The notes: generated by a model not told the origin, from the sequence alone. DNA of 64,000 bases from an uncultured Acidobacteriota bacterium (GCA_963797345.1 CAWCPO010000013.1:18830-82829); one strand, 5' to 3'; positions 29,105 through 59,520 are shown, counted from the first letter of the stretch. Program-made: numbers and translations.

Positions 29105-29175
29105 CAAGTGATTGAAATGCAGGGAGATGTTGGTGGACGTGGCCGGGATCGAACCGGCGACCCCCTGCTTGCAAA
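28808..29175. repeat. 368-bp direct repeat, copy 1 (integrase 3' end plus tRNA-Ala half)
   Basis: Base-for-base identical on visual alignment to 59153..59520 (offset 30,345). Confidence 0.9.
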
Positions 29176-29289
29176 CAAGGTGGGGATAAACCACTAAATG
29201 CTTTGTCTGGTGTCGCTTACACGGAAAATCAACGAGATTCTCGCTCTCTCAAACGTCCCGAAGTTGTCCCGAACATTCCCGTATTAGAT
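29131..29289 (-). repeat. att core (a) plus right arm. The core 29131-29175 is the 3' half of tRNA-Ala(TGC), anticodon loop to CCA.
   Basis: Minus strand reads TTTGCAA-GCAGG-GGGTC-GCCGG-TTCGATC-CCGGC-CACGTCC-A-CCA (U70 fits the Ala G3:U70 identity). The 5' side cannot form the anticodon or acceptor stems. The 159 bp are 97.5% identical to 31519-31677. Confidence 0.8.
29255..29273 (+). promoter_or_regulatory. tandem GTCCCGAA-gtt-GTCCCGAA (candidate arm-type recombinase site)
   Basis: Lies 80 nt from core (a). The same motif is at 31643-31661 and a variant (GTTCCCAA-gtt-GTTCCCGAA) at 59607-59626, 87 nt from core (c). Confidence 0.4.
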
Positions 29290-29604
29290 CTTCCGCGTTG
29301 CTGAGTTTCACCCGGCAGCATTACCCGCATGCCAGTTCTTCAGTTTCCCGATCGTTTCCGTGTTGCATATTCGTCCGCAACTTCTTCGATCACTTCCTGG
29401 AACCCCGTTTCCGGGACCACCCTTCCAGAATACTGGGATGGCTTCACACCGATGAACTGCAACATTCAATTTGCTTCACCATTCTCCTCCATCGATTGGC
29501 TTTGCTTGGTAAGTCTGAGCTAGCTGAAGAACCTGATTTTCTCGATCTCATCATGTAAGATCGAAAAAGCCTGCTAGAACTCTCGGGTTATCGAACCCGT
29601 CTCT

Positions 29605-30249
29605 ATGGACACTCCGCTCGAAAAGAGCAACAATCCGTGCACGATAGACTACGAATCTCTACTCAAGGAAGTGAGGGCGGATTCTTACGAGGCCGCAGTT
29701 TCATTCCTTATGGAGAACCTCCCCTTCGTTTGGCGCGACTCCTACCTCGAAATGATGCCAAGAGATACCAAGATTTTTAGATTTCAGTATGGAACATTCG
29801 AGTACATCTACGACGACTATGCCTCATTGGAAGCAACCGGAGCCGTGCCTTACGATCCCATAATCGAAGCAAGACTCGTCGGCGTTTCCGGGTGTTCGAC
29901 CCCCAAAGAAACTAAACGGGACGATTTTCGCCTCAGGGGATGGGTCGGTCCGACAGAAAAAGCCTTTGGCAGGGCCTGGGACAAAGGTCATTTCATGGCG
30001 CATTCGATTGGCGGGGCGGCTGACCAACTTGAAGTAAACGTCTTTGTCCAACGCCGCGACTTAAATCGCGGCTGGTCAGAAGCGGGTCGGCGGTATCGAG
30101 AAATGGAGAAGTACTGCAAATACCATCCGGGGACCTTCTGCTTCAGCCGCCCCTTGTATCTCGATCAAACAGCCAAGCCCGCATTCCTGGAATTTGGGAT
30201 TCTCAAGAATGTCCACGAGCTATCGGTCGAGTGCTTCGATAATCGATAG
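29605..30249 (+). CDS. DNA/RNA non-specific endonuclease (Endonuclease_NS_2-like) with an unknown 120-aa N-terminal domain
   Basis: WDKGHFMAHSIGGAADQLEVNVFVQRRDLNRGWSEAGRRYREMEKY...RPLYLDQTAKPAFLEFGI matches the D-x-GH-x-A-x-x-GG ... N ... Q ... N-R-G ... E pattern of this nuclease family. No signal peptide or delivery domain. Confidence 0.7.
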   Translation: MDTPLEKSNNPCTIDYESLLKEVRADSYEAAVSFLMENLPFVWRDSYLEMMPRDTKIFRFQYGTFEYIYDDYASLEATGAVPYDPIIEARLVGVSGCSTPKETKRDDFRLRGWVGPTEKAFGRAWDKGHFMAHSIGGAADQLEVNVFVQRRDLNRGWSEAGRRYREMEKYCKYHPGTFCFSRPLYLDQTAKPAFLEFGILKNVHELSVECFDNR

Positions 30250-30289
30250 TTGGGACACCTTCTCTGGGCACGAAGACCTAGGAGGCGCG

Positions 30290-31060
30290 TTGAGTGTAAG
30301 GGTCTATGTAGGCGGACTTCCATATTTAACTACCTCGGACGAGCTGCGGGATGCCGCCCGACAGATTAGGCCCGAGGCCACCGCAGAGATAGTCGTTGAC
30401 AAAATGACTGGCAGATCAAGAGCCTTCGGCTTTTGGACAGTGGCAGACGTATCGGCCGCAGAAGAGCTAATCGAAGCTTATAACGGCAAGGATCTTGGCG
30501 GTCGACGCTTGACGGTCGGTCACGCGAAACCATTTGAACCTCGACATCCCTTAAGGGCAGCTCTCCTAGAACCCTTGGCCGAACTCTCGGTAGAGTCTCC
30601 CATAGTTCGGGTCAGTGAGCAGGTGTGCGAAGATCTGATCGAGTTCTTCGCACGGCATCCCGACGAGATGAGGCTAATGCCACCCCGCCGATTTGAAGAG
30701 CTGATTGCGGACCTGTGGCAGAGGTTCGGCTATGAGGTCGAGCTTACGAAACAAACCCGCGACGGTGGAACGGATGTAATCGCCATCAAAAACTCAGAAG
30801 TCCATACCCGCTTCCTTATACAGTGCAAACGGCTGGCTCCGGGAAAGAAGGTCTCGGTCCAGCCAGTCAGGGAGCTCTTGGGTGTTAAGCAGGACATGGG
30901 TGGATCGAAGGCGGTGTTGGCCACAACTGTCTACTTCACACGTGACGCCCAGATGTTTATAGATCAGCATTGCTGGGAATTAGAAGGAAGAGACTACGAT
31001 GGCGTAGTTGCTTGGCTCCGGCAGGCGACCCAACCACAAAGTCAGACTGGCCTCAAGTAG
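30290..31060 (+). CDS. RRM (RNA recognition motif) fused to an Mrr_cat PD-(D/E)xK restriction-endonuclease domain
   Basis: TTG start 5 nt after AGGAGG. RNP2 VYVGGL and RNP1 RAFGFWTV. C-terminal half RRFEELIADLWQRFGYEVELTKQTRDGGTDVIAI...FLIQCKR is the Mrr_cat pattern. Confidence 0.7.
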   Translation: MSVRVYVGGLPYLTTSDELRDAARQIRPEATAEIVVDKMTGRSRAFGFWTVADVSAAEELIEAYNGKDLGGRRLTVGHAKPFEPRHPLRAALLEPLAELSVESPIVRVSEQVCEDLIEFFARHPDEMRLMPPRRFEELIADLWQRFGYEVELTKQTRDGGTDVIAIKNSEVHTRFLIQCKRLAPGKKVSVQPVRELLGVKQDMGGSKAVLATTVYFTRDAQMFIDQHCWELEGRDYDGVVAWLRQATQPQSQTGLK

Positions 31061-31420
31061 CTCGTCCTCTTGTTCTGCCTAGTGCGCATGATCGGTTTCT
31101 GGCTGTGAGTTCCGCGAAATCTGGCCCGAAGTCTGCTTGTGGGAACTTTGAATTCTGCCGAGAGCTCGCAGTCCATTGCGCGTCAATGACGGGCAATCCA
31201 TGCGTAGCAAGGCGCTACTGCTTTCTCGACGTGGCAAACCGACGCCTGAAATGCTCATGACCTCGATCCGGCCAACTCCGCCGAAAGTGGCTCCCTTTCT
31301 CGCCGTCCCTAGCATGTTGACGCTGATTCTTGCCTCTGTTGTACCGATTGTCCCGAGTTTGCACCAAAAAAATGCCGAGGAAAAAGCAGCTTACATCTAA
31401 ATAAGAGCAGGAGTTGAGTT

Positions 31421-31480
31421 CGTGGGCGTGAGGACATTCGAACTCCCGACCCCCTGTGTGAATAGCAGGTGGTTACGCGG
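31421..31480 (-). other. degenerate second tRNA-3'-half-like remnant
   Basis: Minus strand ACAGGGGGTCGGGAGTTCGAATGTCCTCACGCCCACGA aligns position-for-position with the Ala core. The T-stem is mispaired and there is no CCA. Confidence 0.3.
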
Positions 31481-31518
31481 GAAAACCTCCGACGGCATCG
31501 CATTGAAATGATAGTGGT

Positions 31519-31677
31519 TGGTGGACGTGGCCGGGATCGAACCGGCGACCCCCTGCTTGCAAACAAGGTGGGGATAAACCACTAAATGCTTTGTCTGGTG
31601 TCGCTTACACGGAAAATCAACGAGATTCTCGCTATCTCAAATGTCCCGAAGTTGTCCCGAGCATTCCGGTATTAGAT
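31519..31677 (-). repeat. att core (b) 31519-31563 plus right arm
   Basis: The core is identical to (a) and (c). The arm has 4 mismatches in 159 nt against 29131-29289. Confidence 0.8.
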
Positions 31678-32029
31678 TTCGAGCTTCCGTCCGAAAAACC
31701 ATCAATTGGACCGAATGGACCGAAACTCGAATCTGAGCCGTTGTTGGAAATAGCTGTACCTGCTTGATTCAAGATGAGCGGTCTGAGACATAGGACCAGA
31801 GATAAGTGGCGCGCCCAAGGGGACGATTTTAGAACTTTTCTCGGCGAATTGATGGCAGCCTTGCCACACATTGAATTTCCCGCTGGACTGAGCCTGTAGC
31901 CTGTTTGAGGCCCCCGAGGGCACTTTTCCCGTGATCTGACCTTCCAGGAGTCACGCAAGACCGCTGATGGGAATCACACACTTAACTTCTAATAGACGCC
32001 AAAAATGAAAAAAACCACAAGTACTAGCG

Positions 32030-32950
32030 CTATGTTTGGCTGTTGTATTCGGGCGGTCCATCCAACTGAAAGAACGGCTCTTTTTTAGTGGGTATCCACC
32101 GTCCGTATTGGCGGCAAATCTTGGTTTCGTGTTCAACTCCGGGTATAAAAATATCTTCGTATTTAAGGATGCCGCACAACCACAGAGATTTCGTTTGGTT
32201 CCGAAGAACGGCGTCCCAATCCTCGCGTCCCATAATGCCCCCGTTGTTTTTCAGTTCGGCAACTTGAGGCAGCGGGTCACCTTGCGGAATTATTTGTGGT
32301 GCGAGTATCTCAGAAATGCTGTAAACGCTGTGATCGGGCGCTTGATTCAGGCTTGTTATATAGAGTCCGAATCGAAAAGCCGTCAGCTTTCCCACGGTTT
32401 TACCGAAGTTTTTGAAGCTGAAAAAAGCAAAGATTCTTTGCGGAATCTCCGGGGAAACGCAATGTATTTCTATCGGGATCGCGTCGTCAAACAAAAACCA
32501 AGCTCGTTCGCTGTTTATTATGGCTTGAGCATTCAAGAGGGCTGCGTCTGCTGTGATCTTTTGGAGGGGCAGGCTGTCACGCATCGCCTTCGTGGCTTCG
32601 GCGGTTTTTTCAGCCTGATACCAAATAACCCCCAAAGTACAAATCAGAGCAAGAGCCTGTGCGATACCGACATAGACGAGCCACCATTCGGCCTTTACGG
32701 TTTTATTTTTATCGGCTGTTTCTTGTTGGAGATCGGCGGCGCGTTCTTGTTCGTTTTTGGTTATCGCGGCCAACATCACGTTAAGCGCCGCGTCCTCGGC
32801 GGCTTTTTGGTTGTTATCGCAATTTGTGGTGAATTGAGCGTTGGCACGGCTCTCTTTTTTGGCGACCCCTGCGCGTGGTGGCCCAGAGCTTTGAGAGACA
32901 GATACGATCCACATACCCACAGTCAGGGCTGCGAGGGCAATCTGCTTCAT
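32030..32950 (-). CDS. hypothetical membrane protein (signal/anchor, second TM, 190-aa C-terminal domain)
   Basis: 306 aa. MKQIALAALTVGMWIVSV leader and a WWLVYVGIAQALALICTLGVIWY TM. No family recognised. Confidence 0.6.
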   Translation of the reverse strand: MKQIALAALTVGMWIVSVSQSSGPPRAGVAKKESRANAQFTTNCDNNQKAAEDAALNVMLAAITKNEQERAADLQQETADKNKTVKAEWWLVYVGIAQALALICTLGVIWYQAEKTAEATKAMRDSLPLQKITADAALLNAQAIINSERAWFLFDDAIPIEIHCVSPEIPQRIFAFFSFKNFGKTVGKLTAFRFGLYITSLNQAPDHSVYSISEILAPQIIPQGDPLPQVAELKNNGGIMGREDWDAVLRNQTKSLWLCGILKYEDIFIPGVEHETKICRQYGRWIPTKKEPFFQLDGPPEYNSQT

Positions 32951-33250
32951 AGCGGTGACTATACTACCGTTACCGTACTCTTAAACGGCGCGGAAAAAGG
33001 GATGGTATATAATCCGCTAATCCTTCGCGGAGGGAGCAGATGCGGAACGTCCTGCGAGTCGTTTGGTACACCTTTTTATCACTGCTATCGCTCATCCAAT
33101 CGGTTCATTGCAGGAGATACGGGCCAAACTACATGGCAAACACAAAGCAGGGCAGAATATTTTTAGCAAGCACACGATTTCTAAGGACAAGGGCTACGCC
33201 TGGAACGATTGGCACTACACCAATGATTTCATGAAGAAGGCGAGAGAAGC

Positions 33251-33481
33251 GTGATCAAATCGGCACAAAATTATCCCATTTCCAGCGTCCTCGACACCGA
33301 GGCCAAGGTCAGGTTTGTTGTGCCCAAGTACCAGAGGGAATACATCTGGAGAAAAACGCACTGGGAGGACCTCTTTGACGACGTCCAAGCTAATCCGGAA
33401 GGACATTTCCTGGGTTCCATCATTTGCATCAATCGCGCCGAGGACGCGTACAAGGTGGTTCGAGTCCGCAGGCGGGAGTGA
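33251..33481 (+). pseudogene. N-terminal fragment of a DUF262 (GmrSD-type) protein
   Basis: FVVPKYQREYIWRKTHWEDLFDD...GHFLGSIICI is the DUF262 N-terminal signature. The ORF ends after 76 aa, whereas full-length members are several hundred aa. Confidence 0.6.
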
Positions 33482-34959
33482 TGGTTCGGGAGACGCTCAA
33501 TGCTGGCTCCACGAATGCGTATGTATTTTACGACAACAATATCCTTTTCTATGACCGTCCGAGCACGGGGGCCGGCACCTCAAACCTGGGGACTATATCC
33601 GAGACACTCCCTTACTGGGTGAAGCTGGTGCGGAGCGGGAACAGTTTCAGTGGATATACGTCTCCAGACGGGGTGAACTGGACGCAAGTTGGGTCCACAC
33701 AAACGGTCACAATGGCGCAGAACGTAAGCATCGGCTTTGCTGTGAGCAGCGCGAACAACGCGAGTATTGCCGCCGCCACTTTCGACTCCGTTTCAGTCAC
33801 GTCCACACTTGCACCGCCGGTTGTCACAAGTCTCTCTCCTATGAGTGGCATTGCGGGCATTTCCGTAACGATTGCCGGGTCCAACTTTGGGGCGATGCAA
33901 GGGAATAATGGCGTGCAATTCAACGGGGTGACGGCAGCCGTTTTGAGTTGGAGTGACACGAGCATCGTAGCGACCGTTCCCAACCCGGCCACGACTGGAC
34001 CCGTGGTGGTTATTGTGAATGGGCAAAGCAGCAACGGAGTGATATTTACCGCTCTCACGACCGGCACTCTTTCCGGGGCGATCACCGCATCTGGGTCTGG
34101 CACGGCTATCAGCGGGGCCCAGATTCAAGCCACGCAATTGGGTGAGATAAAGGCCACAACTCAGTCGGACAGTAACGGCAACTATGCGTTCTCGAACCTC
34201 AATGCCGGCACGTACGATATTCAGGTCTCGGCCGCTGGATTCGGAACTTCACTCAATAGTGCCGTCTCTGTTCCTGTGGGTATGACGACAACTCTGAATG
34301 TCAGTCTGTCCCCGCCCGGCACAATCTCCGGAACCGTGACTCGGGCGGATGGAGTAACGCCGATTCCCGGAGCAATCGTACAGGCGTTTGTCGGTGAAAT
34401 TTCGGCGGCTCCAGTCACCACGGATTCGAACGGGAACTACAGCATCGCAGGCTTGAATGCCGGGACCTATAGGGTCCAAGCCTTGGCCAACGGCTATGTG
34501 GCCTCGACTCAAACGGAGTCGGTGACCGGGAATTCCACGACGACAGCGAACTTCTCACTCCAAACGCAAGGGACAGGGACAATCAGCTACGTCTACGACG
34601 CGCTTGGGCGATTAGTGGGAGTTATCAATCCGAACGGCGACACGGTCGTATATAACTACGATGCCGTGGGAAACTTGGCATCAATCTCTCGGCAAAGTTC
34701 CGCCCAGCTTTCCATCATCACCTTTACGCCCTCCAGTGGCATTGTTGGATCTGCCGTAACAATCTACGGAACGGGCTTCAGCAGCACGACAAGTCAGAAC
34801 ACAGTGAATTTTAACGGTACTGCCGCCACTGTTCAGTCAGCGACTACAACCCAGTTAGTGGTGACGGTGCCCACGGGGGCGACAACAGGCCCCATCAGTG
34901 TTACCACTCCCGCAGGATCGGTAACTAGCAGCGCTTCATTCACCGTACAGACCCAGTGA
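33424..34959 (+). CDS. 5'-truncated surface-type protein: partial lectin/LamG-like domain, IPT/TIG, three CarboxypepD_reg-like domains, one YD repeat, IPT/TIG
   Basis: Begins mid-domain (GVMVRETLNAGSTNAYVF...NSFSGYTSPDGVNWTQVG) with no signal peptide. Repeated SDSNGNY.F.NLNAGTY modules. YVYDALGRLVGVINPNGDTVVYNYDAVGNL. Confidence 0.65.
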   Translation: MHQSRRGRVQGGSSPQAGVMVRETLNAGSTNAYVFYDNNILFYDRPSTGAGTSNLGTISETLPYWVKLVRSGNSFSGYTSPDGVNWTQVGSTQTVTMAQNVSIGFAVSSANNASIAAATFDSVSVTSTLAPPVVTSLSPMSGIAGISVTIAGSNFGAMQGNNGVQFNGVTAAVLSWSDTSIVATVPNPATTGPVVVIVNGQSSNGVIFTALTTGTLSGAITASGSGTAISGAQIQATQLGEIKATTQSDSNGNYAFSNLNAGTYDIQVSAAGFGTSLNSAVSVPVGMTTTLNVSLSPPGTISGTVTRADGVTPIPGAIVQAFVGEISAAPVTTDSNGNYSIAGLNAGTYRVQALANGYVASTQTESVTGNSTTTANFSLQTQGTGTISYVYDALGRLVGVINPNGDTVVYNYDAVGNLASISRQSSAQLSIITFTPSSGIVGSAVTIYGTGFSSTTSQNTVNFNGTAATVQSATTTQLVVTVPTGATTGPISVTTPAGSVTSSASFTVQTQ

Positions 34960-34976
34960 AAGGAACGGAGACAGCG

Positions 34977-37900
34977 ATGAAGCACCGCCGGCATTCTGAC
35001 TCACTCTTGGCTGTGGGGCTGATTTTGAGCTTGGGGATGCTCTTATGCCCGGCCTCATCCCCAGGGAAAACAAGATCGCTTCGCCCCAGAAAGGCCCAGG
35101 CCAATCTCTCTTCTCTTATTCTCGCCGGCCAAACGGCGACACTTCTTCCCAACGGCGAGTGGCTGTTGGTTGGTGGCGAAGGGCCACAGGGCCCTGTGGC
35201 AACGGCGGCGATTCGTGATCCACAGACAGGTGCGGCGACGGTACTCCCTAGTGGACTCCATCAGCCTCGCGCGTGGCATACAGCCACAGTACTACCGAAT
35301 GGGACGATTCTAATTTTCGGCGGCGTGGGCGCAAACGGCTCCGTGCAAACGATTCCTGAACTTTTTGACCCGATGACACAAAAGTTTGCAAGTCTGCCGC
35401 CCATGGGATTGACTCCACGTGCCTATCACACAGCCACGCTTCTCACGGATGGCCGGGTGCTTATTGTCGGCGGAATTTCGGACAGCGGGGAAACGCTGGG
35501 ATCAATTGAGGCGTGGAACTTTCAAACGAACACCGCCGCGAATTTGCCTCCGGGTCTCCTCGTACCTCGCAGGGGGCACACGGCAACACTGCTCGCAGAC
35601 GGGACGGTCCTCCTCTGGGGAGGATACGGTGCCACTGGTGCCGAGCTGAATTTCGGCGAAGTATTCGACCCCGTGACACAGCGCACGACAATGGAGACTG
35701 CCACTGCGTCAACACAGAACACTCAACCGCCTCAACTCGAAGCATCGTTGCCGCCAGATGGGGCAACAAATGTATCCGTAAACACGCTCATTGCGTTGCG
35801 CTTCTCGAAGCCTCTTGCCGTCGTAACCGTAAATACTCAGACCGTTGTTCTGTCTGGCCCGCAGGGACCCGTGGACGCCCAGGTGGTTCCTGCGGAAGGC
35901 GGGATGCTGGCGTTTATCACTCCCGATGCTGTCATGGTTCCCGGCACAACCTATACGATTGCGCTGTCCGGTCTCACCGATGGCGCCAATGCGCTGAATG
36001 ATGCGGCCATCTCATTTACGACGGCCGGTACGCCTCCTGCTGACACGGGAGCCGTTCCCGGAACAGCGTCAGGGGCGGACCCGGATGACACCGGGAGCCA
36101 GTCATTCAATTCTCCGTGGCGAAAGATGCCACCGCTGGAAGCCCCGCCAGGTGTGACTGCAATTTCAGGGCAAGCTCTTCGATTGAATGGTCAGCCACTC
36201 GAAAATGTGACTCTTTCAATTGGAGGCCAATCGGCAACAACGGATGATACGGGCCGATTCCTGCTTGCGAACATTGGTTCAGGCCATCAGGTGATGCTCA
36301 TTGATGGCAGCACCGCTGACAAGGGCGACAGAACCTATGGATTATTTGAAGATGGCGTGAATATCGTCGCGGGGCAAACGTACACCTTGCCCTATACGAT
36401 TTGGATGACAAGGATCGACACGCAAGATGCGGTGACGATTCCCTCGCCCACAGTGGCGCAAGACACGGTGATCACGACGCCGCGGCTGCCGGGGCTCGAA
36501 CTACACCTGGCCGCCAACACCGTGATTTACGATCACCAGTGGAACGTGGCTCGCACAATCAGCATCACGCCGGTTCCGCTCGACAAGCCCCCATTCCCAT
36601 TGCCCCAAGGCGTCCAGGTTCCGATCTATTTCACGATTCAGCCGGGCGGCGGTTACATACAGGTGGGCGGGACTGGTAATTCGTACACGGGAGCAAGGCT
36701 GTTCTACCCGAACACGTATCAAGAAAAACCGGGAACGATCTTTGATTTCTGGAATTACGACGCGAAGCAGAAAGGGTGGTACGTCTATGGCGAAGGCAAA
36801 GTCAGCCAAGACGGACTCAGCGTAGTCCCGAACCCTGGCGTCGAGATATATGAGTTCACTGGAGCAATGGTCGGGGGTCCGTCCGCTGCCAAGGCAATCG
36901 GTCCACCGGCGCCTTCGCCACCGCACGGCGGAGAACCGGTCGACTTATCATCAGGCCTCTTCACGTACAACAAGACCGATATGGTGTTGCCGGATGTTAT
37001 TCCTCTGGTGGTGCAGCGAACTTATACGACGAACGATGGGCTGTCACGGTCATTCGGCATCGGGGCGATGCAGGATTACGACATGTTTATGGTCGGAGAT
37101 ACCTTCCCGTACACCTATCAGGAATTGTGCCTTCCGGATGGATCGAGGATTCATTTTTATCGTATATCGTCGGGCACAAGTTATTCCGATGCCGTGTACG
37201 CTCATACCTCCACGAATACGAAATGGTATGGCGCCACACTGACCTATAATGCCGGCGCGGTTTTCGCCGCTACCAATTGGGTTCTTACCACGCGCGATGG
37301 GACGAGCTATTACTTCCCGGATGGGCTTGGACAAACCAACCCCGGCAAAATGGCTTTGCTCGGCATTCGCGACCGCTATGGCAATACGGTTGCGATTAAC
37401 CGCGATTCGAATGGAAACATCACCTCTCTTGTTTCGCCGAACAGACGCACGATCGCGTTCTTTCATGATTCGAGCAACCGCATCACTCAGGCGCTGGACA
37501 ATACCGGCCGTACTGTCAGTTATACCTACGATTCGAGTGGACGGCTTTCGACCGTCACGGACGCGAACGGCGGCGTCACCACCTACACGTACGATTCCAA
37601 CAACAACATGCTGACGATCAAGGACGCTCGCGGGATCACCTACCTCACGAACCAGTACGACAGCAACGGTCGAGTGATTACGCAGACGCTCGCCGACGAA
37701 AGCACGTATCAATTTGCGTGGACGCCCGCAACAAGCACGGTGCTAACCAGTTTTGTCGATGGAAATCAGCCCACGGGCGGTTCGTCGGCGGCTGTCCTGA
37801 GCTTTCGCTCCTGCGCCACTTGCTCGGAAGGATACCTGCCTCTGATTTCGCAGGTGAATGTCACCGATCCGCGCGGGATCGTCCGGCAAGTGCAGTTCGG

Positions 37901-40376
37901 GCCGGCCGGGCAGATGACGAGCGATACGTATGCGCTGGGCAAGCCCGAGCAGCAGACATTCACTTACGCCTATTACGCCGATAATCTCCTCCAATCGGTG
38001 ACGGATCAGCTCGGGCGCACCACGAACTATTCCTACGACGCAAACGGAAATGCGACGAGCATCAACCGGACGGCCGGAAGCTTGTCGGCAACCACCTCGT
38101 TCAGTTACGACCCGGCGTTCAGCCAGCTTACGAGTTTGACCGACCCCCTGAATAACACGACCTCCTTTGCAATCGACGGCAGCGGAAACACGACAGGCAT
38201 TACGGACCCGCTGGGCCATCAGACGACGTTCACTTTCGATTCCGAAGGGCGGCCCTTGACGGCCACGGACCCGCTCAGCCATTCCACCCACTTTGCTTAC
38301 GACCCAAGCAGCGATCTCGTATCCATCACCGACCCGCTCAGCCGCACCACGTCTCGTTCGTTCGATCCCGTTGGCCGGCTCATCAGTGTGGCGAATCCGC
38401 TGAGCCAGAAGACGCAGTATGCCTATGATCCCTTGAATCAGGTTACCCAGGTGACGGACGCGCTCGGGAATGCGACGTCATTCGCCTATGACCCCAACGG
38501 CAACCTCACGGGCGTGACGGATGCCAATAGCCACGCGACGAGCTATACGTACGATTCGATGGATCGGCTCGCCACCCGCGCCGACCCGCTCAGCCGCGGC
38601 GAGAGTTATCAGTACGATGGCAACGGCAATCTGACCCAATTCACGGACCGCCGTGGCGAGGCCACAACCTACACCTACGACAATCTGGACCGCCGCGCTT
38701 TCGCAGGATTCAACACGCAGGCGGGGCCGAGCTACGAAAGCACGATCAGCTACACCTACGACGTAGGCAACCGGCTGACGCAAGCCGTGGATTCGATCAC
38801 CGGGACGATCGCGCGCGTGTATGACGGCCTCGATCGGCTGACTTCGGAAACCACGCCGCAGGGCGGCGTCAGCTACGGCTACGACATTGCCAGCCGCAGA
38901 ACCAGCATGACCGTCGCGGGCCAGCCGGCCGTGAATTATTCATACGACAACGCGAGCCGGTTGACGCAGATCGCGCAGGGCGCATCGGCGGTATCCTTTG
39001 TGTACGATTCGGCCAGCCGGCGCACGTCGCTGACTCTGCCGAATGGCGTGGCCATGAGCTACAGCTACGACAACGCGTCGCAACTCACCGGCATCAATTA
39101 CACCCTCGGCCAGAACTCGCTCGGGAATTTAGCATATACCTATGATCTCGCCGGTCGGCGGACGAGTGAGGGCGGGAGCTACGCAGCGGCCAATCTGCCG
39201 CAGCCTGTCTCCCTCACGGCGTACGACGCCGCAAACGAGTTGACGGAGTGGGGCGCGGCCACACCGGTGTACGACGCGAATGGGAACACGCTCAGCGACG
39301 GAACGAATAGCTACGCCTGGAACGGGCGCAATCAGCTCGCGTCAATGAATTCGAGTGCGGAAAGCTTCCAGTACGATCCCCTCGGCCGGCGCGTGGCGAA
39401 GACTGTCCTATTTGGCACGACGAATTACCTCTACGACGGCGCAAACCCCGTCCAGGAACTCGCAGGCACGACGCCTACGGCAAACTTGCTGACTGGCCTG
39501 GGAATCGACGAACGCTTTACCAGAACAGATTCGAGCGCGACGGCGAATTTCCTCACCGATGCGCTTGGCAGCACTTTGGCGCTGACGGACCCAAGCGGCA
39601 ACACCCTCGCCTCCTACACCTACGAGCCTTTCGGCAACACGACTGTCACTGGCAGTTCTGCAAGCACCTACCAATTCACCGGACGAGAAAACGACGGCAC
39701 TGGCGTGTACTTCTACAGGGCTCGTTACTATTCGCCGACATTGCAGAGGTTCATGAGCGAAGACCCCTTAGGCATGCAGGGCAGCGGACCTAATCTTTAT
39801 GCATACGCTGGCAATAACCCTATCAATTGGACCGATCCAGGGGGCATGGTGTCGCCCTTCACCTTCTATCGCCGCCCCCCTAACCCTCTCCCCGGCAGAA
39901 AGGACAATGGGTCGCCAGGTCTGGGAAGACAGATCTTTGGGTACCTCTGGAATAACTTGACGAATGGTTGCGGCAAGAGCCTGCAGAATATCTGCCAAGG
40001 TGGTATTCCTCCCGCTCCATTCGAATTGGCCGCTGGTGCTGAGGCCGCGGCGGAAGGGCTTGCTGAAGGATCGAGCGCGGCAGCTCCTGATTTCCTTGGG
40101 CAAGAGAGCGGACCATCAATCCCAGTACCCGAGGGCGCAGCTGGGCCGTATCCTACCGATAACCTCGCCGGAATTCAATATAATGACGGGTCGGGTGGAA
40201 ATGGGCTGGCAGGCAATGTCACGGATGTGAGGGTGATGGATTCGACTGCGGACTATCCGAACGGGTACGTGAACTACGGAAGCCAACAGGCAAACGGCGG
40301 ATGGCAAAGCGTGAATCCCTATACAGGCCAGTCAGTGCCGCCGAGCAGTCCTTGGTGGCACATATCGCCTAAGTGA
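34977..40376 (+). CDS. Rhs/YD-repeat polymorphic toxin with Sec signal, Kelch repeats, an Ig-like domain, the Rhs shell, and a 175-aa C-terminal toxin (39849..40373)
   Basis: ATG at 34977 after GGAACGGAG. MKHRRHSDSLLAVGLILSLGMLLCPASS leader. At least 4 Kelch-like LxDGxVLxxGG units. GEPVDLSSGLFTY plug. Dozens of YD repeats. YRARYYSPTLQRFMSEDP...NPINWTDPGGM demarcation motif. Confidence 0.95.
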   Translation: MKHRRHSDSLLAVGLILSLGMLLCPASSPGKTRSLRPRKAQANLSSLILAGQTATLLPNGEWLLVGGEGPQGPVATAAIRDPQTGAATVLPSGLHQPRAWHTATVLPNGTILIFGGVGANGSVQTIPELFDPMTQKFASLPPMGLTPRAYHTATLLTDGRVLIVGGISDSGETLGSIEAWNFQTNTAANLPPGLLVPRRGHTATLLADGTVLLWGGYGATGAELNFGEVFDPVTQRTTMETATASTQNTQPPQLEASLPPDGATNVSVNTLIALRFSKPLAVVTVNTQTVVLSGPQGPVDAQVVPAEGGMLAFITPDAVMVPGTTYTIALSGLTDGANALNDAAISFTTAGTPPADTGAVPGTASGADPDDTGSQSFNSPWRKMPPLEAPPGVTAISGQALRLNGQPLENVTLSIGGQSATTDDTGRFLLANIGSGHQVMLIDGSTADKGDRTYGLFEDGVNIVAGQTYTLPYTIWMTRIDTQDAVTIPSPTVAQDTVITTPRLPGLELHLAANTVIYDHQWNVARTISITPVPLDKPPFPLPQGVQVPIYFTIQPGGGYIQVGGTGNSYTGARLFYPNTYQEKPGTIFDFWNYDAKQKGWYVYGEGKVSQDGLSVVPNPGVEIYEFTGAMVGGPSAAKAIGPPAPSPPHGGEPVDLSSGLFTYNKTDMVLPDVIPLVVQRTYTTNDGLSRSFGIGAMQDYDMFMVGDTFPYTYQELCLPDGSRIHFYRISSGTSYSDAVYAHTSTNTKWYGATLTYNAGAVFAATNWVLTTRDGTSYYFPDGLGQTNPGKMALLGIRDRYGNTVAINRDSNGNITSLVSPNRRTIAFFHDSSNRITQALDNTGRTVSYTYDSSGRLSTVTDANGGVTTYTYDSNNNMLTIKDARGITYLTNQYDSNGRVITQTLADESTYQFAWTPATSTVLTSFVDGNQPTGGSSAAVLSFRSCATCSEGYLPLISQVNVTDPRGIVRQVQFGPAGQMTSDTYALGKPEQQTFTYAYYADNLLQSVTDQLGRTTNYSYDANGNATSINRTAGSLSATTSFSYDPAFSQLTSLTDPLNNTTSFAIDGSGNTTGITDPLGHQTTFTFDSEGRPLTATDPLSHSTHFAYDPSSDLVSITDPLSRTTSRSFDPVGRLISVANPLSQKTQYAYDPLNQVTQVTDALGNATSFAYDPNGNLTGVTDANSHATSYTYDSMDRLATRADPLSRGESYQYDGNGNLTQFTDRRGEATTYTYDNLDRRAFAGFNTQAGPSYESTISYTYDVGNRLTQAVDSITGTIARVYDGLDRLTSETTPQGGVSYGYDIASRRTSMTVAGQPAVNYSYDNASRLTQIAQGASAVSFVYDSASRRTSLTLPNGVAMSYSYDNASQLTGINYTLGQNSLGNLAYTYDLAGRRTSEGGSYAAANLPQPVSLTAYDAANELTEWGAATPVYDANGNTLSDGTNSYAWNGRNQLASMNSSAESFQYDPLGRRVAKTVLFGTTNYLYDGANPVQELAGTTPTANLLTGLGIDERFTRTDSSATANFLTDALGSTLALTDPSGNTLASYTYEPFGNTTVTGSSASTYQFTGRENDGTGVYFYRARYYSPTLQRFMSEDPLGMQGSGPNLYAYAGNNPINWTDPGGMVSPFTFYRRPPNPLPGRKDNGSPGLGRQIFGYLWNNLTNGCGKSLQNICQGGIPPAPFELAAGAEAAAEGLAEGSSAAAPDFLGQESGPSIPVPEGAAGPYPTDNLAGIQYNDGSGGNGLAGNVTDVRVMDSTADYPNGYVNYGSQQANGGWQSVNPYTGQSVPPSSPWWHISPK

Positions 40377-40395
40377 ATCTGCTGAAGATGATAAT

Positions 40396-40770: not shown

Positions 40771-40788
40771 AAGTTCACCCCACTCGGA

Positions 40789-47839: not shown

Positions 47840-48029
47840 GTTTTGTCTTCCGCCCGCAACAAGAATTCGTGTCGTGGTTTGGGCGATGGCCACATCAACA
47901 AAGGCGCGAGCCAGCCGGTGCGGACATGCCTCAGCCCGTCTCCGTCACGGCCTATGACGCGGCGAACGAGTTGACCGCCGCGGCGAGGCCACAACCTACA
48001 CCTACGACAATCTGAACCGCCGCGCTTTC

Positions 48030-52223: not shown

Positions 52224-52224
52224 G

Positions 52225-52626: not shown

Positions 52627-52832
52627 GAAATTTAGGCCGGCGCGAGTGTGAACCATATGGAGATTTCCGTGTGGCACAGCTCGGTCGCTGTCATTCGCCA
52701 AAATTCCATCTGCCCCGAAAGTGCCGCGATTCTTTCGCGCTAAGGATCGAAAAGCGAGCCTGCACTTAGCCGAGATTTGCACTGAGCATCCTGAAAATCC
52801 CCTCGGATGCAGGAAATCATCTAACCCAGGCG

Positions 52833-54712: not shown

Positions 54713-54760
54713 ACACCGAGAGAACGAGTTGCGCCAAGTAAAGCGCGGCTGACACGATCA

Positions 54761-55456
54761 ATGGCCCATGACGCCGCGAACGAGCTCACCGAGTGGGGCG
54801 TGGCCACGCCAGTGTACGACGCGAATGGCAATACGATCGGTTCGGGCGGAATCAACTCGGCGTACGATTTCGAGAACCGCCTGATCCAGCAGGGCGCGGG
54901 AGTCAGCATCGTGTACGACGGCGATGGGAATCGCGTGAAGAAGACGGCCGGAGGCGTCACGACGACGTACCTGGTGGACGAGATCAATCCCACCGGCTAC
55001 CCGCAGGTAATCTACGAAGGCTTCTCGGGAGGCGCTGGCGCGCGGGAACTTTATCACATGTACGTCTACGGGCTGGAGCGCATCAGCCAGAGCCGCACCT
55101 TCCTTGCCGGCAGCCAGCAGACGCAAATCAGCTACTACGTCTACGACGGCCACGGCAGCACACGAGCATTAACCGATCCCACCGGCAACGTCACCGACGC
55201 CTACGACTACGACGCCTTCGGGAACCTGATCCACTCGACCGGCACCACGCCCAACGAATTCCTCTTCGCCGGCGAGCAATTCGACTCCACCCTCAACCTC
55301 TACTACAACCGCGCCCGATACTCTCGCCCGGAAACCTTGGAACGTCTGGCCAAGGAACCCCAGAAAGTTAACTCTTCTGTGGTTCACCACGCCTTCCGTT
55401 GCTCCCCTTGCTATAAGACTTGCAGCCGGCTGCTGGCCCACATGAAGGTCGAATGA
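54761..55456 (+). pseudogene. orphan Rhs cassette 8: chimeric and 3'-truncated, with no toxin and no immunity
   Basis: The first 20 or so codons match the local family and the rest is a different Rhs lineage. Similarity stops right after LYYNRARY, before the PxxxxDPxGL motif. Confidence 0.7.
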
Positions 55457-55541
55457 ATTGCCAGAACAGCTTCCAAGGCTCACAGGGCTGATTCCAGAAG
55501 CCATAGTTGAAGAGAGTTAAATTTCTCCTGACATTTCCCCA

Positions 55542-55578
55542 TTTTTTTGCCTCTTTATAAGTGAGGGGAGTTCTCGCC
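55542..55578. repeat. T-run plus hairpin motif, copy 1 (copy 2 at 55831-55867)
   Basis: TTTTTT(G/C)CC..TCT.TATA..TGAGGGGAGTT.CT shared at about 85% over about 38 nt. Copy 2 forms a 7-bp stem (TCCCCTC/GAGGGGA). Confidence 0.45.
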
Positions 55579-55999
55579 GGACATTCCCACGAGCTTGACG
55601 GCCCCGAACCACAACGGTGAGCCGCCGGGCGTCGCGCACGGCTGCCTGTGGGGTCGCTGCCACCCCCCAGTATGGGCTGCACGCCCGGTTGTCTGTGCCG
55701 CGTACCAAGCTCCAAGAAGGGTTTTCGTAAGGCGCCCCGGCACTATATCTCGCACCTAAACGGAGCGGAGGCGATGACCCCAACCGCAAAAGATCCGCCC
55801 AAACCGAATTTTGTTGGTGCGTTTTGCCCGTTTTTTCCCCTCTGTATAGATGAGGGGAGTTTCTGCTCAATGCCCAACCAGGAGCTTGGGTTTACCGAGG
55901 AAAGCATCCGTCAGCCGTATTGCGTGAATGACCGTAGGAGAAACGTCGGCTTCGATACGTTCTTGCTGAAAAGGATTGGCATCCCCAGCGAGGAACCCA

Positions 56000-56242
56000 A
56001 TGAAAACAAGTGACGACGGTAGGAATTACACGATGCACTTTTTCATCTGCCAGCATCGTCACCGTCCCGCTTTCGAAGTCACTTACGGCAAGACACCTAC
56101 AGCCGCGCAGTCAGCGAAAGATACCGTGGAACAAACACGAAATCGGGCGGCATTCTCCCTCCACAGCCGCCCCGAAGACGCCTCCCGTCTGCGCCGCATT
56201 CTGAACGACCGGGACCTTACCGCGGGAATCCTCGCGCTATGA
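56000..56242 (+). CDS. hypothetical protein (80 aa)
   Basis: GAGGAA RBS then ATG at 56000. Its stop overlaps the next gene start (ATGA at 56239). Confidence 0.4.
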   Translation: MKTSDDGRNYTMHFFICQHRHRPAFEVTYGKTPTAAQSAKDTVEQTRNRAAFSLHSRPEDASRLRRILNDRDLTAGILAL

Positions 56243-57246
56243 ACATCTCCTCTTCCCATCTCGACGCCCTCAAAGCCTTCGGCTACACCGAGGAGGAAGC
56301 ACGGTTTCTTTACATTGTTGCGACGCATTCGGGCTACTTTGTCGCGCGCCAGTTCCTTGCATTCACTGGAGCTCATTGGGGCAACCGCACGACCACGTTT
56401 TGGGGCAAACTCCACACCCAGAAACACGCCCGCACCGAGTGCTTTCCCAAGAGCGGAGTCATCCATCATCTCTTTTCGCGGAGGCTCTACCGCCAGCTCG
56501 GACGGGAGAAACTTCGCAACCGCCGCGAACACGAAATCGAGTTCATCCGGCAACGCATCGCCATCCTCGATTTTGTCCTCGCAAACCAAGACCGAACGTA
56601 CCTTGAAACCGAGCCGGAAAAGGTCCGCTATTTCTGCGACCAACTGAAGGTGCCCAATCACTTTCTGCCCTCGAAAACCTTTCACGGACAGCGTACCTCC
56701 CAGCCCACGGTTCGCTATTTCGTGGATAAGTTCCCGATGTTCCTGGGCAATGAGGTTTCGCCCTCCCCTGTGGTGACGTTCACCTACATCCAGGGGAGCG
56801 AGGCAAACATGACCGACTTCGTTCATCACCTGGAAACATATTTGCCCCTCTTCCGCCAGCTTTCCGAGTTCCGGTTCCTGTATCTGGCTCGGGCAGATTC
56901 CCACTTTGAAAAGGCGAAGGAGATGTTCAAGTCTCTGGTCATGATCCCGCTCCAGTCGGACGCGGCAAAAGACATCATCCGGTACTTCGAGGTTCGCAAG
57001 GCTTGGGACCTCAAACAATACGCTTCTCTGACCGAAGCAGACCTCATATTCCGCAATGAAGCCAAGCGACGGTTCCCGGGAGACCGGTTCGAGCACTTGT
57101 ATCGGGGATGGAAGGCCGCGCGCGTGACCGAGGCGAACATCCGTTACGAATTCGGCGGGGATGGCCGGCCTCATACGGTCCATTTCACCGCTGAAATCCT
57201 GCGGCGCGTCGCCCCGACGAGAGCTGAATCCGGTGAGAAAGGGTGA
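56239..57246 (+). CDS. hypothetical element-backbone protein (335 aa). A replication/relaxation-type role is possible but unproven.
   Basis: Natural amino-acid composition, unlike the antisense ORF 56083..57183. Translationally coupled to the upstream ORF. Followed by a terminator-like hairpin. Confidence 0.6.
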   Translation: MNISSSHLDALKAFGYTEEEARFLYIVATHSGYFVARQFLAFTGAHWGNRTTTFWGKLHTQKHARTECFPKSGVIHHLFSRRLYRQLGREKLRNRREHEIEFIRQRIAILDFVLANQDRTYLETEPEKVRYFCDQLKVPNHFLPSKTFHGQRTSQPTVRYFVDKFPMFLGNEVSPSPVVTFTYIQGSEANMTDFVHHLETYLPLFRQLSEFRFLYLARADSHFEKAKEMFKSLVMIPLQSDAAKDIIRYFEVRKAWDLKQYASLTEADLIFRNEAKRRFPGDRFEHLYRGWKAARVTEANIRYEFGGDGRPHTVHFTAEILRRVAPTRAESGEKG

Positions 57247-57357
57247 CGAGGCCGAAAATGAACCCCTGCAAACTCGTCTTCAGCACTTTCTTCAGCCCAT
57301 TGAGCGGCGAAGTCTTTGGCCGAGAGAGGGATGGAGACACGGCGAGGGGCAAAAGCG

Positions 57358-57482
57358 CCATGGAAAAAAACACGGAAACGGGCGGGAGCGACCCCACTTT
57401 TTCGGCGTTCAGCCGCCCAAGTGGAATGTGGGGTCGCTCCCGCCTGCGCCCCGAGCAGCTCGGGGCCGTGTTTTTTCCACGG
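57358..57482. other. 125-nt composite palindrome (nested inverted repeats)
   Basis: Outer arms CCATGGAAAAAAACACGG / CCGTGTTTTTTCCACGG. Inner perfect 17-bp arms GGCGGGAGCGACCCCAC (57381-57397) / GTGGGGTCGCTCCCGCC (57428-57444). Confidence 0.7.
57448..57476 (+). terminator. candidate intrinsic terminator after 56239..57246
   Basis: GCCCCGAG-cag-CTCGGGGC followed by CGTGTTTTTT. Confidence 0.45.
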
Positions 57483-57548
57483 GGACAGAAAACAAGAATT
57501 CCGTCAGACACCGAGTCTGACGATTTGTAAGCCGAAAGGAGAAAACAA

Positions 57549-57797
57549 TTGCCAATCCTGAAAGCACCCCCAAAGCAGCCCAAGAACGCAATGATCCAGG
57601 TCCGCGTCGAGGAGAACATCAAACTCAATGTGGATAAATACGCTCAGTTCATCGGCGGCAACCAAGCCTACGTCGTGAGCGAAGCCCTCAAGCTTCTGTT
57701 CAAGAAAGACGAGGAGTTCAAGCGTTGGCTAGACCAACGAGGCTGTGAGGACGACCATCAGCCGACCGAAGGAGGAGTCCTCACTAAGACGCCTTAA
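57549..57797 (+). CDS. ribbon-helix-helix-like small DNA-binding protein
   Basis: AAGGAG 7 nt before the TTG start. The IQVRVEENIKLNVDKYA...YVVSEALKLLF pattern (beta strand then two helices) is RHH-like. Confidence 0.5.
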   Translation: MPILKAPPKQPKNAMIQVRVEENIKLNVDKYAQFIGGNQAYVVSEALKLLFKKDEEFKRWLDQRGCEDDHQPTEGGVLTKTP

Positions 57798-57802
57798 CGC
57801 CC

Positions 57803-58219
57803 ATGAAGTCTCGTCCAACCCAACTCGGTGTGCGCAAGAATACAGCGTCCTCAAGACAGCATGCCCCGCGCCTTTCAACAGGTACCGACTCGAATGCGCC
57901 TTGCATTGATGAAGGCGTCTCGGAAACAGAACGCTCTTCGATCCGCAACGATGGTCAAGCAGCAGAGTTTCAAGACGAACTGCATGCCGCGTCACAACAC
58001 GCGGCCACAGTGGGAAAAGAACGACACGAAGACCACCTTCTGACAGTTCACGAAGTAGCCGAGTTGTTGCGGGTGCCCGTGTCCTGGGTCTATGGACGCA
58101 TGCGTAGACGATCCACAGAGCGATTGCCCGCTTACCGTCTCGGGAAGTACTGGCGTTTCAGTGAGAGCGAAATACGTGCATGGGTTAAACGTCAGCATGG
58201 AGGCCAGCATGCTGCTTGA
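57803..58219 (+). CDS. xis: excisionase-family (MerR-like HTH_17) DNA-binding protein; start uncertain (58010 GTG possible)
   Basis: LLTVHEVAELLRVPVSWVYGRMRRR...LPAYRLGKYWRFSESEIRAWV is the classic excisionase/AlpA-type motif. Confidence 0.7.
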   Translation: MKSRPTQLGVRKNTASSRQHAPRLSTGTDSNAPCIDEGVSETERSSIRNDGQAAEFQDELHAASQHAATVGKERHEDHLLTVHEVAELLRVPVSWVYGRMRRRSTERLPAYRLGKYWRFSESEIRAWVKRQHGGQHAA

Positions 58220-58280
58220 TAGCAGAGCTACACTCATAGCTGACACAGGACAAGCCAAGCGGGCCATCGAAGGAGGAACG

Positions 58281-59449
58281 ATGGTTCGCAGGCGGTATCA
58301 ACGAGGTTCGCTTTTCAAGCGCGGCAAACGTGAAAGGGTCTGGGTTGCCCGCTGGTGGGAGGATGTGATCAACGCGGACGGAACAATGGGAAGGATGCGC
58401 CGTTCAATGGTAATCGGTACGGTTGCAGAACTAACCACGCGCCGTCTCGCCATGCATGCTCTCTCGCAGCGGCTCCTGCTTTTGAACAATGGGAGCCAAC
58501 ATCCACAAGCCATGCGCACGTTGAAGGACTTTGTGCGAATGGATTGGGAACCAGTAGTGCTTCCGACCCTTAAGTACGCAACACAAATGCATTACAAGTA
58601 CATGCTCCGCGTTCATCTGATTCCAGCATTTGGTGAACGACGGCTCCCTGATATTTCGCGCGCGGCGATTCAAGTATTGTTGGCCGCAAAGCTTCGCGAC
58701 GGGCTTTCTTGGGAGACCGTACATCACATCCGATGTGCGCTGAGCAAAGTGCTGGGTACTGCGGAGGAGTGGGGCTATATCTCCGACAATCCAGTACGCA
58801 AGACGCGACTCCCGAGAAGGGATTGCACTTCAGAACGGCCCATCGTTACGCCACAGCAAGTGAAGCGTCTGACAACCGCTCTTCCAGAGCCCGCCAAATC
58901 CATCGCGCTGCTTTTAGTGCTGACGGGATTACGAATTGGCGAGCTTCTCGCGCTTCGATGGAAGAACGCGGACCTGGACGACCAAATGCTGCGCGTAACC
59001 GAAACCGTTTACGAGGGGCACTTCGACAAGCCAAAGACAAAGCGAAGTGTCCGTGCAATTCCATTGTGTCGAGAAGCTGTGTCGATACTCTCCTCTTTGC
59101 GCCAAGATGCATGTGAACCTGAGCAATTAGTCTTCGCGACTTGCTCAGGCCGTCCACTGTGCCGGCGAAACTTCTGCAGCGCCAATTGCGACCTACGTGC
59201 AAGGAACTCGGTTTGCCACGAATTACGTGGCATGCCTTGCGCCACTGCCACGCGACGTTGCTGGACGTTGTAGGAGCACCGCTGGGCACCGTGCAGGCGC
59301 TTTTAGGCCACGCATCGCCGGAAGTTACACGGCAAATTTATCTGCACGCGATTCCGGAGGAACAGCGCAGAGCGGTTGAAAAGGTCGAGAAGCTCCTTAT
59401 TGGACCCAAATGGACCCAAGTTTCGGGAGCCGAGCAAAGGCCGAATTAG
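58281..59449 (+). pseudogene. int: tyrosine recombinase/integrase with a -1 frame break at about 59159-59162
   Basis: GAAGGAGGAACG-ATG start. MVRRRYQRGSLFKRGKRERVWVARWWEDV N-terminus and LTGLRIGELLALRW (Arg I) in frame A. HALRHCHATLL and RQIYLH (Tyr) in the frame of ORF 59141..59449. Confidence 0.9.
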
Positions 59450-59520
59450 CAAGTGATTGAAATGCAGGGAGATGTTGGTGGACGTGGCCGGGATCGAACC
59501 GGCGACCCCCTGCTTGCAAA
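59153..59520. repeat. 368-bp direct repeat, copy 2, including att core (c) at 59476-59520
   Basis: Identical to 28808-29175. The core is followed by unrelated sequence, not by a tRNA 5' half. Confidence 0.9.

Follow-up and report, generated by a model that had tools for sequence, protein, structure and literature searches.

Evidence for tandem accretion of integrative elements at a tRNA-Ala(UGC) hotspot in uncultured Acidobacteriota

Introduction

Genomic islands that reside in tRNA genes (tDNAs) have been catalogued by Islander, in which attachment (att) sites centred on the anticodon form the commonest class (2083 of 3919 islands) (PMC4383910). The sublocation classes of tDNA att sites are treated by Williams 2002 (NAR 30:866), as cited in PMC4383910. 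Strict tandems, in which every member has its own integrase and its own tDNA fragment, amount to 125 arrays of at least two islands and 4 arrays of at least three in 2168 genomes (PMC4383910). Accretion of the streptococcal integrative and conjugative elements ICESt1/ICESt3 and the related cis-mobilizable elements (CIMEs) were described by Pavlovic 2004 and Bellanger 2011, as reviewed in PMC5704250. Here, a 64,000-nucleotide stretch of DNA from an uncultured Acidobacteriota bacterium (GCA_963797345.1, CAWCPO010000013.1:18830-82829; hereafter the window) is analyzed, following up a first interpretation made without database searches (the sequence-only reading). Three identical 45-nucleotide (nt) sequences in this window are very probably the att cores of a tRNA-Ala(UGC) hotspot that serves several tyrosine-integrase lineages in Acidiferrales-type Acidobacteriota, and at which elements accreted in tandem and subsequently decayed.

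Three displaced tRNA-Ala fragments

The 45-mer TTTGCAAGCAGGGGGTCGCCGGTTCGATCCCGGCCACGTCCACCA occurs three times in the 64-kb window, always on the minus strand and with 0 mismatches, at an expectation of 0.00 copies from 100 shuffles. No further match with up to three mismatches is present in the window beyond these three copies:

29131-29175, minus strand: core 1, a displaced 45-nt 3' fragment of tRNA-Ala(UGC), forming with its flanks an attP-like junction between a distal arm and an integrase arm
31519-31563, minus strand: core 2, a displaced 45-nt tRNA-Ala 3' fragment at the seam of the elements E_b and E_a
59476-59520, minus strand: core 3, a displaced 45-nt tRNA-Ala 3' fragment at the seam of the elements E_c and E_b

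The fragment spans the tRNA from the first base of the anticodon loop TTTGCAA through the CCA end; the block of identity is 45 nt long, or 47 nt if two bases past the CCA are counted. As in Islander islands, the three exact copies are direct repeats in one orientation and consist of a tRNA fragment, and the extent of the identity block, from the anticodon loop to the 3' end, places them in the anticodon-centred class A, the strand-exchange positions within it being putative. Neither a tRNA nor a tmRNA could be detected in the 64-kb window by ARAGORN, and Rfam yielded no match at its gathering score. At a relaxed threshold, the T arm and acceptor strand of the three cores gave 14-bit tmRNA-like matches, and nothing else resembling a tRNA remnant appeared. 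The 31-nt 5' half of the tRNA, which is known from relatives, is absent from the window at up to three mismatches, and an acceptor stem cannot be formed from the 76 nt ending at any of the three cores. An interpretation of the cores as tmRNA ends was rejected, given the presence of an anticodon stem-loop and the intact tRNA-Ala of relatives.

All of this bears out the sequence-only reading, which had reported three identical minus-strand cores and no intact tRNA in the window, had found no sequence before the cores that could pair as a 5' strand, and had taken all three copies for att remnants. Its division of the 45-mer into anticodon loop, stem, variable region, T arm, acceptor strand and ACCA proved right as well, because 70 related copies are called as 76-nt tRNA-Ala(tgc) genes that end in the exact 45-mer. 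The cores thus correspond to the 3' part of a real tRNA-Ala(UGC), 76 nt long, that belongs to uncultured Acidobacteriota (Acidiferrales/Terriglobia).

The tRNA-Ala locus in related genomes

Relatives were sought by a scan for the exact 45-mer in one genome per species, which returned at least 118 loci; the counts below, and the loci designated by L numbers (except L119), refer to the exact matches listed. Nearly all of them belong to uncultured Acidobacteriota labelled Acidiferrales, Acidoferrales or Terriglobia. Among 121 listed occurrences, 70 lie inside an intact gene and 51 are displaced fragments. The 70 intact copies are preceded by GGGCGTGTAGCTCAGCTGGGAGAGCACCTGC or a near variant, are called as 76-nt tRNA-Ala(tgc) by ARAGORN and have acceptor strands that imply a G3:U70 pair. 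In 45 of the 51 fragments, the match to the tRNA extends 0-3 nt past the upstream end of the 45-mer and thus breaks off at the 5' border of the anticodon loop.

The arrangement of these copies is polar. In 10 of 10 contigs where an intact tRNA and a fragment share a strand, the fragment is located 4.2-29 kb downstream of the tRNA 3' end. An eleventh contig, where the two are on opposite strands and 249 kb apart, does not count as a pair. On each of another two contigs there are three fragments, all on one strand, spaced 20.9/19.3 kb on one contig and 5.9/30.4 kb on the other, and therefore stacks recur in this clade. The near-equality of one spacing in DATHIB010000195 (30,352 bp) to that between the outer cores of the window (30,345 bp) was judged coincidental, since the order of small and large elements differs. 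A tyrosine integrase gene is found within 28-170 nt after 24 listed copies (17 intact tRNAs and 7 fragments) and points at the copy in all 24. These integrases fall into at least three groups, namely int_B-like proteins that are 44-63% identical to the integrase of the window, int_Z-like proteins and distant ones (22-27%). Elements of the int_B, int_Z and E_c types were found singly in other genomes.

It is conceivable that the 45-mers are tRNA-like modules which the elements carry and which have a separate function, be it as a regulatory RNA derived from a tRNA or as a repeat family, and the perfect conservation of three copies that cannot form a tRNA would fit such a role. The 45-mers are, however, exact 3' portions of a bona fide host tRNA that start at the anticodon loop, occur at element boundaries alone and on one strand, are adjoined by integrase genes in a fixed orientation and match no Rfam family. 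An older copy at 31418-31469 has moreover decayed to 66% identity, as expected for a non-functional scar, and the proposal is hardly credible.

The exact 45-mer, in some cases with an intact tRNA-Ala, was also observed on contigs binned as Dormibacterota, Limnocylindria, Baltobacteraceae, Aquilonibacter or Spartobacteria (L005, L025, L028, L035, L047, L071, L076, L082, L083 and L112). These are either mis-binned island-bearing contigs or cases of cross-phylum transfer.

Architecture of the stack

The window appears to hold a stack of at least four mobile elements, comprising the stub E_0, the elements E_a and E_b, and the start of E_c:

28803-29104, plus strand: int', the E_0 remnant, a tyrosine integrase 3' remnant of about 100 codons matching positions 110-169 of 172 of the Pfam Phage_integrase profile (E 1.4e-10)
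29057-29074, plus strand: tandem motifs GGACCCAA of the integrase arm (TTGGGTCC on the tRNA strand), starting at 29057 and 29067 and again at 59402 and 59412
29176-31518: E_a, a 2.3-kb att-flanked cassette without integrase, CIME-like, GC content 0.527
29176-29293, minus strand: Y' arm, the integrase-distal end of E_a, 96-97% identical to the Y arm of E_b, with GTCCCGA at 29255 and 29266
31335-31400, plus strand: int_Z stub, the last about 20 codons of a second integrase family, ending in SVVPIVPSLHQKNAEEKAAYI / VPIVPSLHQKNAEEKAAYI at the stop codon
31418-31469, minus strand: pseudo-core, 66% identical to the core, with an anticodon stem-loop, T arm and acceptor strand that resemble those of tRNA-Ala in degenerate form (repeat family D17)
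31564-59475: E_b, a 27.9-kb island with a distal Y arm, an Rhs toxin array as cargo and, at its tRNA-proximal end, a module of excisionase and integrase
31564-31680, minus strand: Y arm of E_b, with GTCCCGA at 31643 and 31654
57803-58219, plus strand: excisionase-family helix-turn-helix protein (HTH_17; PF12728, 3.9e-13; TIGR01764 'excise', 35.6 bits at a cutoff of 28.8; phrog_66), directly upstream of the integrase
58281-59449, plus strand: int_b tyrosine integrase (PF00589 and PF14659), directed toward core 3, its stop codon 27 nt from the core
59521-64000: E_c, the distal part of a further element running off the window, GC content 0.53
59521-59650: W arm of E_c, 130 nt, which adjoins core fragments in L063, L115, L103, L080 and L018 at 83-92% identity

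On the tRNA strand, from right to left, the proposed order would be the intact tRNA outside the window, E_c, core 3, E_b, core 2, E_a, core 1, the int' stub of E_0 and kdpC. E_b would run from int and xis through the Rhs array to the Y arm, and E_a from a relic spacer through the pseudo-core, the int_Z stub and an Mrr-like nuclease to the Y' arm.

Two repeats reach past the cores. The segment 28803-29175 is repeated at 59148-59520 over 373 nt with 99.7% identity, and 29129-29293 resembles 31517-31680 over 165 nt with 97% identity. Left of core 1, 328 nt are identical to the 3' end of int_b, frameshift included, at the same distance from the core as int_b from core 3; this homology stops abruptly at 28803, 167 nt past kdpC. 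The int' segment of about 300 nt thus seems to be the sole remainder of an outermost element, E_0, and core 1 with its flanks (Y' arm, core, integrase arm) would have the structure of an attP site or tandem junction of an element of the int_B...Y type. The motif GGACCCAA is present in two copies in each integrase arm, and GTCCCGA in two copies in each Y arm and one in the Z arm; these tandem repeats are putative arm-type binding sites of the integrase.

The int_b gene lies inside E_b next to core 3, which is the placement that Islander islands show. As sequenced it reads in two frames, with split Pfam matches. The break could be located by blastx against homologues to about 59168-59174 and fits a change from AAAA to AAA; the frame-corrected product of 388 amino acids (aa) matches the integrase family phrog_1 (7.6e-69). 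The frameshift lies inside the 373-nt repeat and is common to both copies (~59170 and ~28825). A connection between the frameshift and the repeat boundary was rejected, the shift being about 20-26 nt inside the repeat and not at its edge.

Base composition marks the left end of the stack. At ~28.8 kb, the GC content drops from 0.61-0.62 to 0.53-0.58. The tetranucleotide correlation to the first 17 kb amounts to 0.87-0.94 for 17031-28802, 0.45 for E_a, 0.64-0.82 for E_b and 0.68 for E_c. By composition, foreign DNA would start at the int' stub.

A chimeric or mis-resolved join through the 45-nt core or the 373-nt repeat could in principle imitate such a stack. The relatives found are metagenome-assembled genomes (MAGs) and the source is probably one too, a near-perfect 373-nt repeat can mislead assemblers, and the splitting of both kdpB and int by frameshifts hints at an error-prone consensus. 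Each core nevertheless has its own flanks, and there is no long exact duplication beyond 373 nt. Independently assembled contigs show the same architecture, with three same-strand fragments 5.9-30 kb apart, and any other path through the 373-nt repeat would likewise require it to be present twice. An assembly artefact is therefore considered very unlikely.

Most of this layout had been anticipated. The order int', core, E_a, core, E_b with its integrase, core, E_c drawn from the sequence alone is correct according to the repeats, the Pfam integrase matches and blastx. The interpretation as elements stacked at one tRNA hotspot agrees with the cores, arms and integrase modules and with the polarity in relatives, where, as predicted, the tRNA lies upstream, fragments lie downstream (10 of 10) and the abutting integrase points at the copy (24 of 24). 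The distinct flanks and the similar independent contigs speak against the concern that the cores might be assembly duplications, and the shift of GC content and tetranucleotide usage at ~28.8 kb upholds the claim of foreign DNA from the int' stub rightward.

Origin of E_a and the int_Z family

E_a has exact cores at both ends, no integrase domain in its open reading frames (ORFs) and the int_Z stub as the only part of an integrase gene that is left, which corresponds to the sequence definition of a CIME. Translated, the stub resembles the C-terminus of a 459-aa integrase that abuts the core in L033. Full int_Z genes adjoin an intact tRNA-Ala in L069, L060 and L003, and JBAWEZ010000077 contains a complete 4.2-kb int_Z...Y-arm element. 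Core 2 is separated from the pseudo-core by a spacer of about 48-55 nt, and the stub follows ~17 nt beyond the pseudo-core. The same order of core, spacer, pseudo-core and stub is found in eight other loci (including L036, L104, L105, L114, L048, L109 and L040), behind an intact tRNA in L109. In int_Z elements, the place of the pseudo-core is occupied by the real core, and the pseudo-core probably represents a fossil att site, either carried along with the real core or fixed next to it. The Y-type arm adjoins core fragments in L048, L105, L059, L066, L071 and L072. Because of this recurrent arrangement, the full int_Z genes at tRNA-Ala and the intact element of JBAWEZ010000077, E_a is best explained as a decayed member of the int_Z...Y-arm family.

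Small core-flanked islands of 4.4-5.9 kb, mostly without a recognizable integrase, were also observed in relatives (L094+L042, L023, L038, L062+L012, L071). Their cargo is unrelated and consists of a large membrane protein with a transposase-like ORF, dehydrogenase- and hydrolase-like ORFs, repeat proteins or a Ser/Thr-kinase-like protein, labels that were read from translations without profile searches. The scarcity of integrases in these islands fits frequent decay and, less probably, a family of cassettes mobilized in trans. In an extension of the latter idea, which we regard as improbable, the tRNA-Ala(UGC) locus of Acidiferrales would be an integron-like platform on which cassettes without integrase are moved in trans by resident int_B or int_Z enzymes. 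If so, cassettes would be bounded by exact cores, with the Y arm at one end and the core, spacer, pseudo-core and int_Z stub at the other, and the stack would represent an actively shuffled array of defence and toxin cassettes, not a graveyard of decayed islands.

History of the stack

According to the established model of anticodon-loop integrases, crossover between attP and the tRNA gene would occur in or beside the 7-nt anticodon loop. The incoming element would bring a replacement 3' half, by which the tRNA would be regenerated at the integrase-proximal end (attL), and the old 3' half would stay at the far end (attR). A head-to-tail stack would then result when further elements integrated into the regenerated gene or at internal cores, with an intact tRNA-Ala expected to the right of position 64,000. 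Provided that every newcomer used the regenerated tRNA, the elements would have arrived in the order E_0, E_a, E_b and E_c. Recombination between cores 1 and 3, or between the 373-nt repeats, could release E_a and E_b as a circle of 30,345 bp. We infer the order of arrival, the arm-type binding sites, the site of crossover and any present-day mobility, and the exact history of the stack is held loosely.

Several observations weigh against decayed tandem accretion at this tRNA gene. The intact tRNA-Ala of this genome was not seen, none being present in the 64-kb window. The stack certainly lacks a terminal attR core at its chromosomal end in the window; a deletion removed the rest of E_0 together with its outer core. 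The only full-length integrase of the window is out of frame as sequenced, and the left boundary falls at 28803 by composition versus ~17030 by synteny. Among the exact matches listed, the 70:51 ratio of intact genes to fragments is not an unbiased estimate of occupancy. Finally, the 373-nt repeat is 99.7% identical versus 96-97% for the Y and Y' arms, a difference that strictly independent serial arrivals do not predict.

Because of this high identity and the common frameshift, set against the 3-4% divergence between Y and Y', some duplication, gene conversion or import en bloc is suggested. The elements would then be real, and either a part of the stack, for example E_a with E_b, was imported as one unit, or the int'-core 1 segment arose by duplication or gene conversion of int_b-core 3 followed by a deletion. 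The repeat of the integrase 3' end and core, with the same frameshift in both copies, and the lower similarity of the Y arms both fit this scenario. The Y-core-Z junction of core 2 is seen again on two contigs (L048 and L105) that belong to another MAG, which means that such composites circulate, and co-transfer of accreted tandems is documented in streptococci (PMC5704250). The segments differ, on the other hand, in their distal and proximal arms and in composition, and the single occurrence of E_c-, int_B- and int_Z-like elements elsewhere fits separate arrivals. Such an event is unlikely overall, although it keeps more weight than the other alternatives, and it would alter the history of the feature, not its nature. 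Tandem accretion followed by decay remains the preferred explanation for the three cores.

Cargo of the elements

The elements carry the following genes and features, among them the Rhs locus of E_b:

29605-30249, plus strand: hypothetical protein of E_a
30194-31060, plus strand: RRM_1 and Mrr_cat nuclease of E_a (Pfam; PADLOC mREase_IV and PDC-S02 matches)
33424-55456, plus strand: cargo of E_b, the Rhs locus (repeat families D1-D15, Pfam RHS_repeat)
33424-34959, plus strand: CarboxypepD_reg/TIG/RHS protein
34956-40376, plus strand: 1806-aa Rhs protein (Kelch/Big_5/RHS)
59698-60540, minus strand: ArdC-like anti-restriction protein of E_c, with an 86% identical homologue beside the W arm in L103
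60548-60619: hairpin, formed by an inverted repeat whose 30-nt arms are 83% complementary and enclose a 12-nt loop, directly upstream of the ArdC-like gene
62528-63532, plus strand: trypsin-like peptidase (Pfam, PHROGs and PADLOC searches of E_c)

In the E_a nuclease gene, a eukaryote-type RNA recognition motif (RRM_1) is joined, in an unusual combination, to a restriction endonuclease domain of the Mrr type; this nuclease domain resembles PADLOC PDC-S02 defence candidates and type IV methyl-directed restriction enzymes. The Rhs array of E_b contains ~8 orphan C-terminal cassettes, in which conserved Rhs core ends of ~0.3-1.2 kb repeat every 1.2-3.2 kb. All cassette tips differ, and each is followed by small ORFs that presumably encode immunity proteins; a weak resemblance to YkuD/Tlde1 was noted for one tip. 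Close to the integrase end of E_b lies the gene of a 335-aa protein (56239-57246) that matches nothing in Pfam, NCBIfam, PHROGs, PADLOC or PDB sequences. This protein has 37-45% identical homologues beside integrases in L033, L074 and L018 and appears to be encoded by a conserved E_b backbone gene. The hairpin of E_c could be an operator, a terminator or an origin-of-transfer-like structure.

No relaxase, coupling protein or type IV secretion gene was found among the scanned ORFs of E_b, several of which match no family at all, and up to the end of the window E_c shows just the ArdC-like gene among conjugation-type genes. PHROGs matches are limited to integrase, excisionase and anti-restriction functions, which does not make a prophage. 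A blastn comparison with 50,697 phage records gave no match, the int end of E_b and E_c matched no phage or plasmid DNA, and the core, searched as a trace of free attP forms, is absent from IMG/VR viral contigs.

Chromosomal flank of the stack

The DNA to the left of the int' stub includes a segment with a composition close to that of the host:

17031-28802: 11.8 kb with LuxR, acyl carrier protein (ACP), AMP-ligase, pyridoxal phosphate (PLP) decarboxylase and kdpFABC genes, missing from CAWGKL010000009

CAWGKL010000009 (L094/L042) is the closest relative among the matches listed and is 84-90% identical over window positions 9557-17030. Synteny stops at ~17030, by a cytochrome c gene (window 16415-16996) and ~50 nt from a tRNA-Ala fragment of the relative, to the right of which follow a 4.7-kb island and an intact minus-strand tRNA-Ala (4.8 kb from the fragment). 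No core is present near 17030 in the window. The segment 17031-28802 is either older island material that has ameliorated to host-like composition or native DNA that was lost in the relative.

The kdpFABC module (23648-28682) lacks kdpDE in the 17031-28802 DNA. It is 88% identical to a module in metagenome contig L119 that lies beside tRNA-Lys(CTT) and rpsL-rpsG-fusA; in other metagenome loci, kdpFABC is found beside kdpDE. Neither L119 nor the window has a fragment of tRNA-Lys flanking the kdp module. Native neighbourhood of kdpC and tRNA-Ala found no support, as none of 80 metagenome loci with a 75-89% identical KdpC has a core within 10 kb of kdpC. The kdpB gene (25741-27757) consists of two overlapping ORFs in different frames. 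This split and the frameshift of int_b could be consensus indel errors or could mark real pseudogenes.

Comparison with known systems

The locus offers a clean and well-delimited case of tandem island accretion in a poorly studied, largely uncultured soil phylum, and in many acidobacterial genomes one tRNA-Ala gene emerges as the common target of integrases from at least three lineages. The stack delimits its cargo precisely, namely a polymorphic-toxin arsenal of the Rhs type, an Mrr-type nuclease and an anti-restriction gene. This can be useful for the annotation of mobile DNA in MAGs, where short tRNA fragments are ignored and islands are often taken for core genome.

The resemblance to the tDNA islands of Islander comprises the integrase beside its target, the replacement 3' half, the displaced 3' fragment at the far end, the anticodon-centred att site and the head-to-tail order of islands at one tDNA. 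In contrast to the Islander arrays, the window has a single full integrase, which carries a frameshift, two members have been reduced to stubs, no terminal attR is present and the intact tDNA would lie outside the window. The strict tandem definition does not apply either: E_a retains a stub of ~20 codons, E_0 a stub of ~100 codons without an outer fragment, and any integrase of E_c would lie outside the window. The host also differs and belongs to an uncultured acidobacterial order.

As described in the review of ICESt1/ICESt3 (PMC5704250), integration, decay to an att-flanked element without integrase and arrival of a newcomer at the same site follow one another, and the same course can be envisaged here. 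E_a would qualify as a CIME by its sequence, and the cores around E_a and E_b would allow composite excision of the kind outlined there. According to the same review, elements of the ICESt1/ICESt3 type insert in Firmicutes at the 3' end of tRNA-Lys or protein-coding genes and are associated with conjugation modules; among the scanned ORFs of the present elements, no relaxase or type IV secretion genes are visible.

The tycheposons of Prochlorococcus (bioRxiv 10.1101/2020.12.28.424599) are likewise small, cargo-carrying tyrosine-recombinase elements at tRNA genes, with a partial tRNA copy between neighbours. Newcomers push older elements inward, and fragmented integrases and additional partial tRNAs mark older events, as in the window. 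The host phylum and the integrase lineages differ, and the primase/helicase replication modules of tycheposons were not identified here. Their cargo consists of nutrient-acquisition genes, whereas an Rhs toxin array and nuclease-type genes are carried by the elements of the window.

At the asparagine tDNA hotspots of Klebsiella pneumoniae (PMC4891358), one tRNA species similarly receives different islands with different integrases. Several tDNA copies are used there, whereas the evidence presented here points to repeated use of a single tRNA-Ala locus. Tandem site-specific accretion as such is textbook knowledge and no new mechanism is involved; what is new is the host clade, a tRNA-Ala target common to several integrase lineages, and the depth and state of the stack, with at least four elements and a fossil site.

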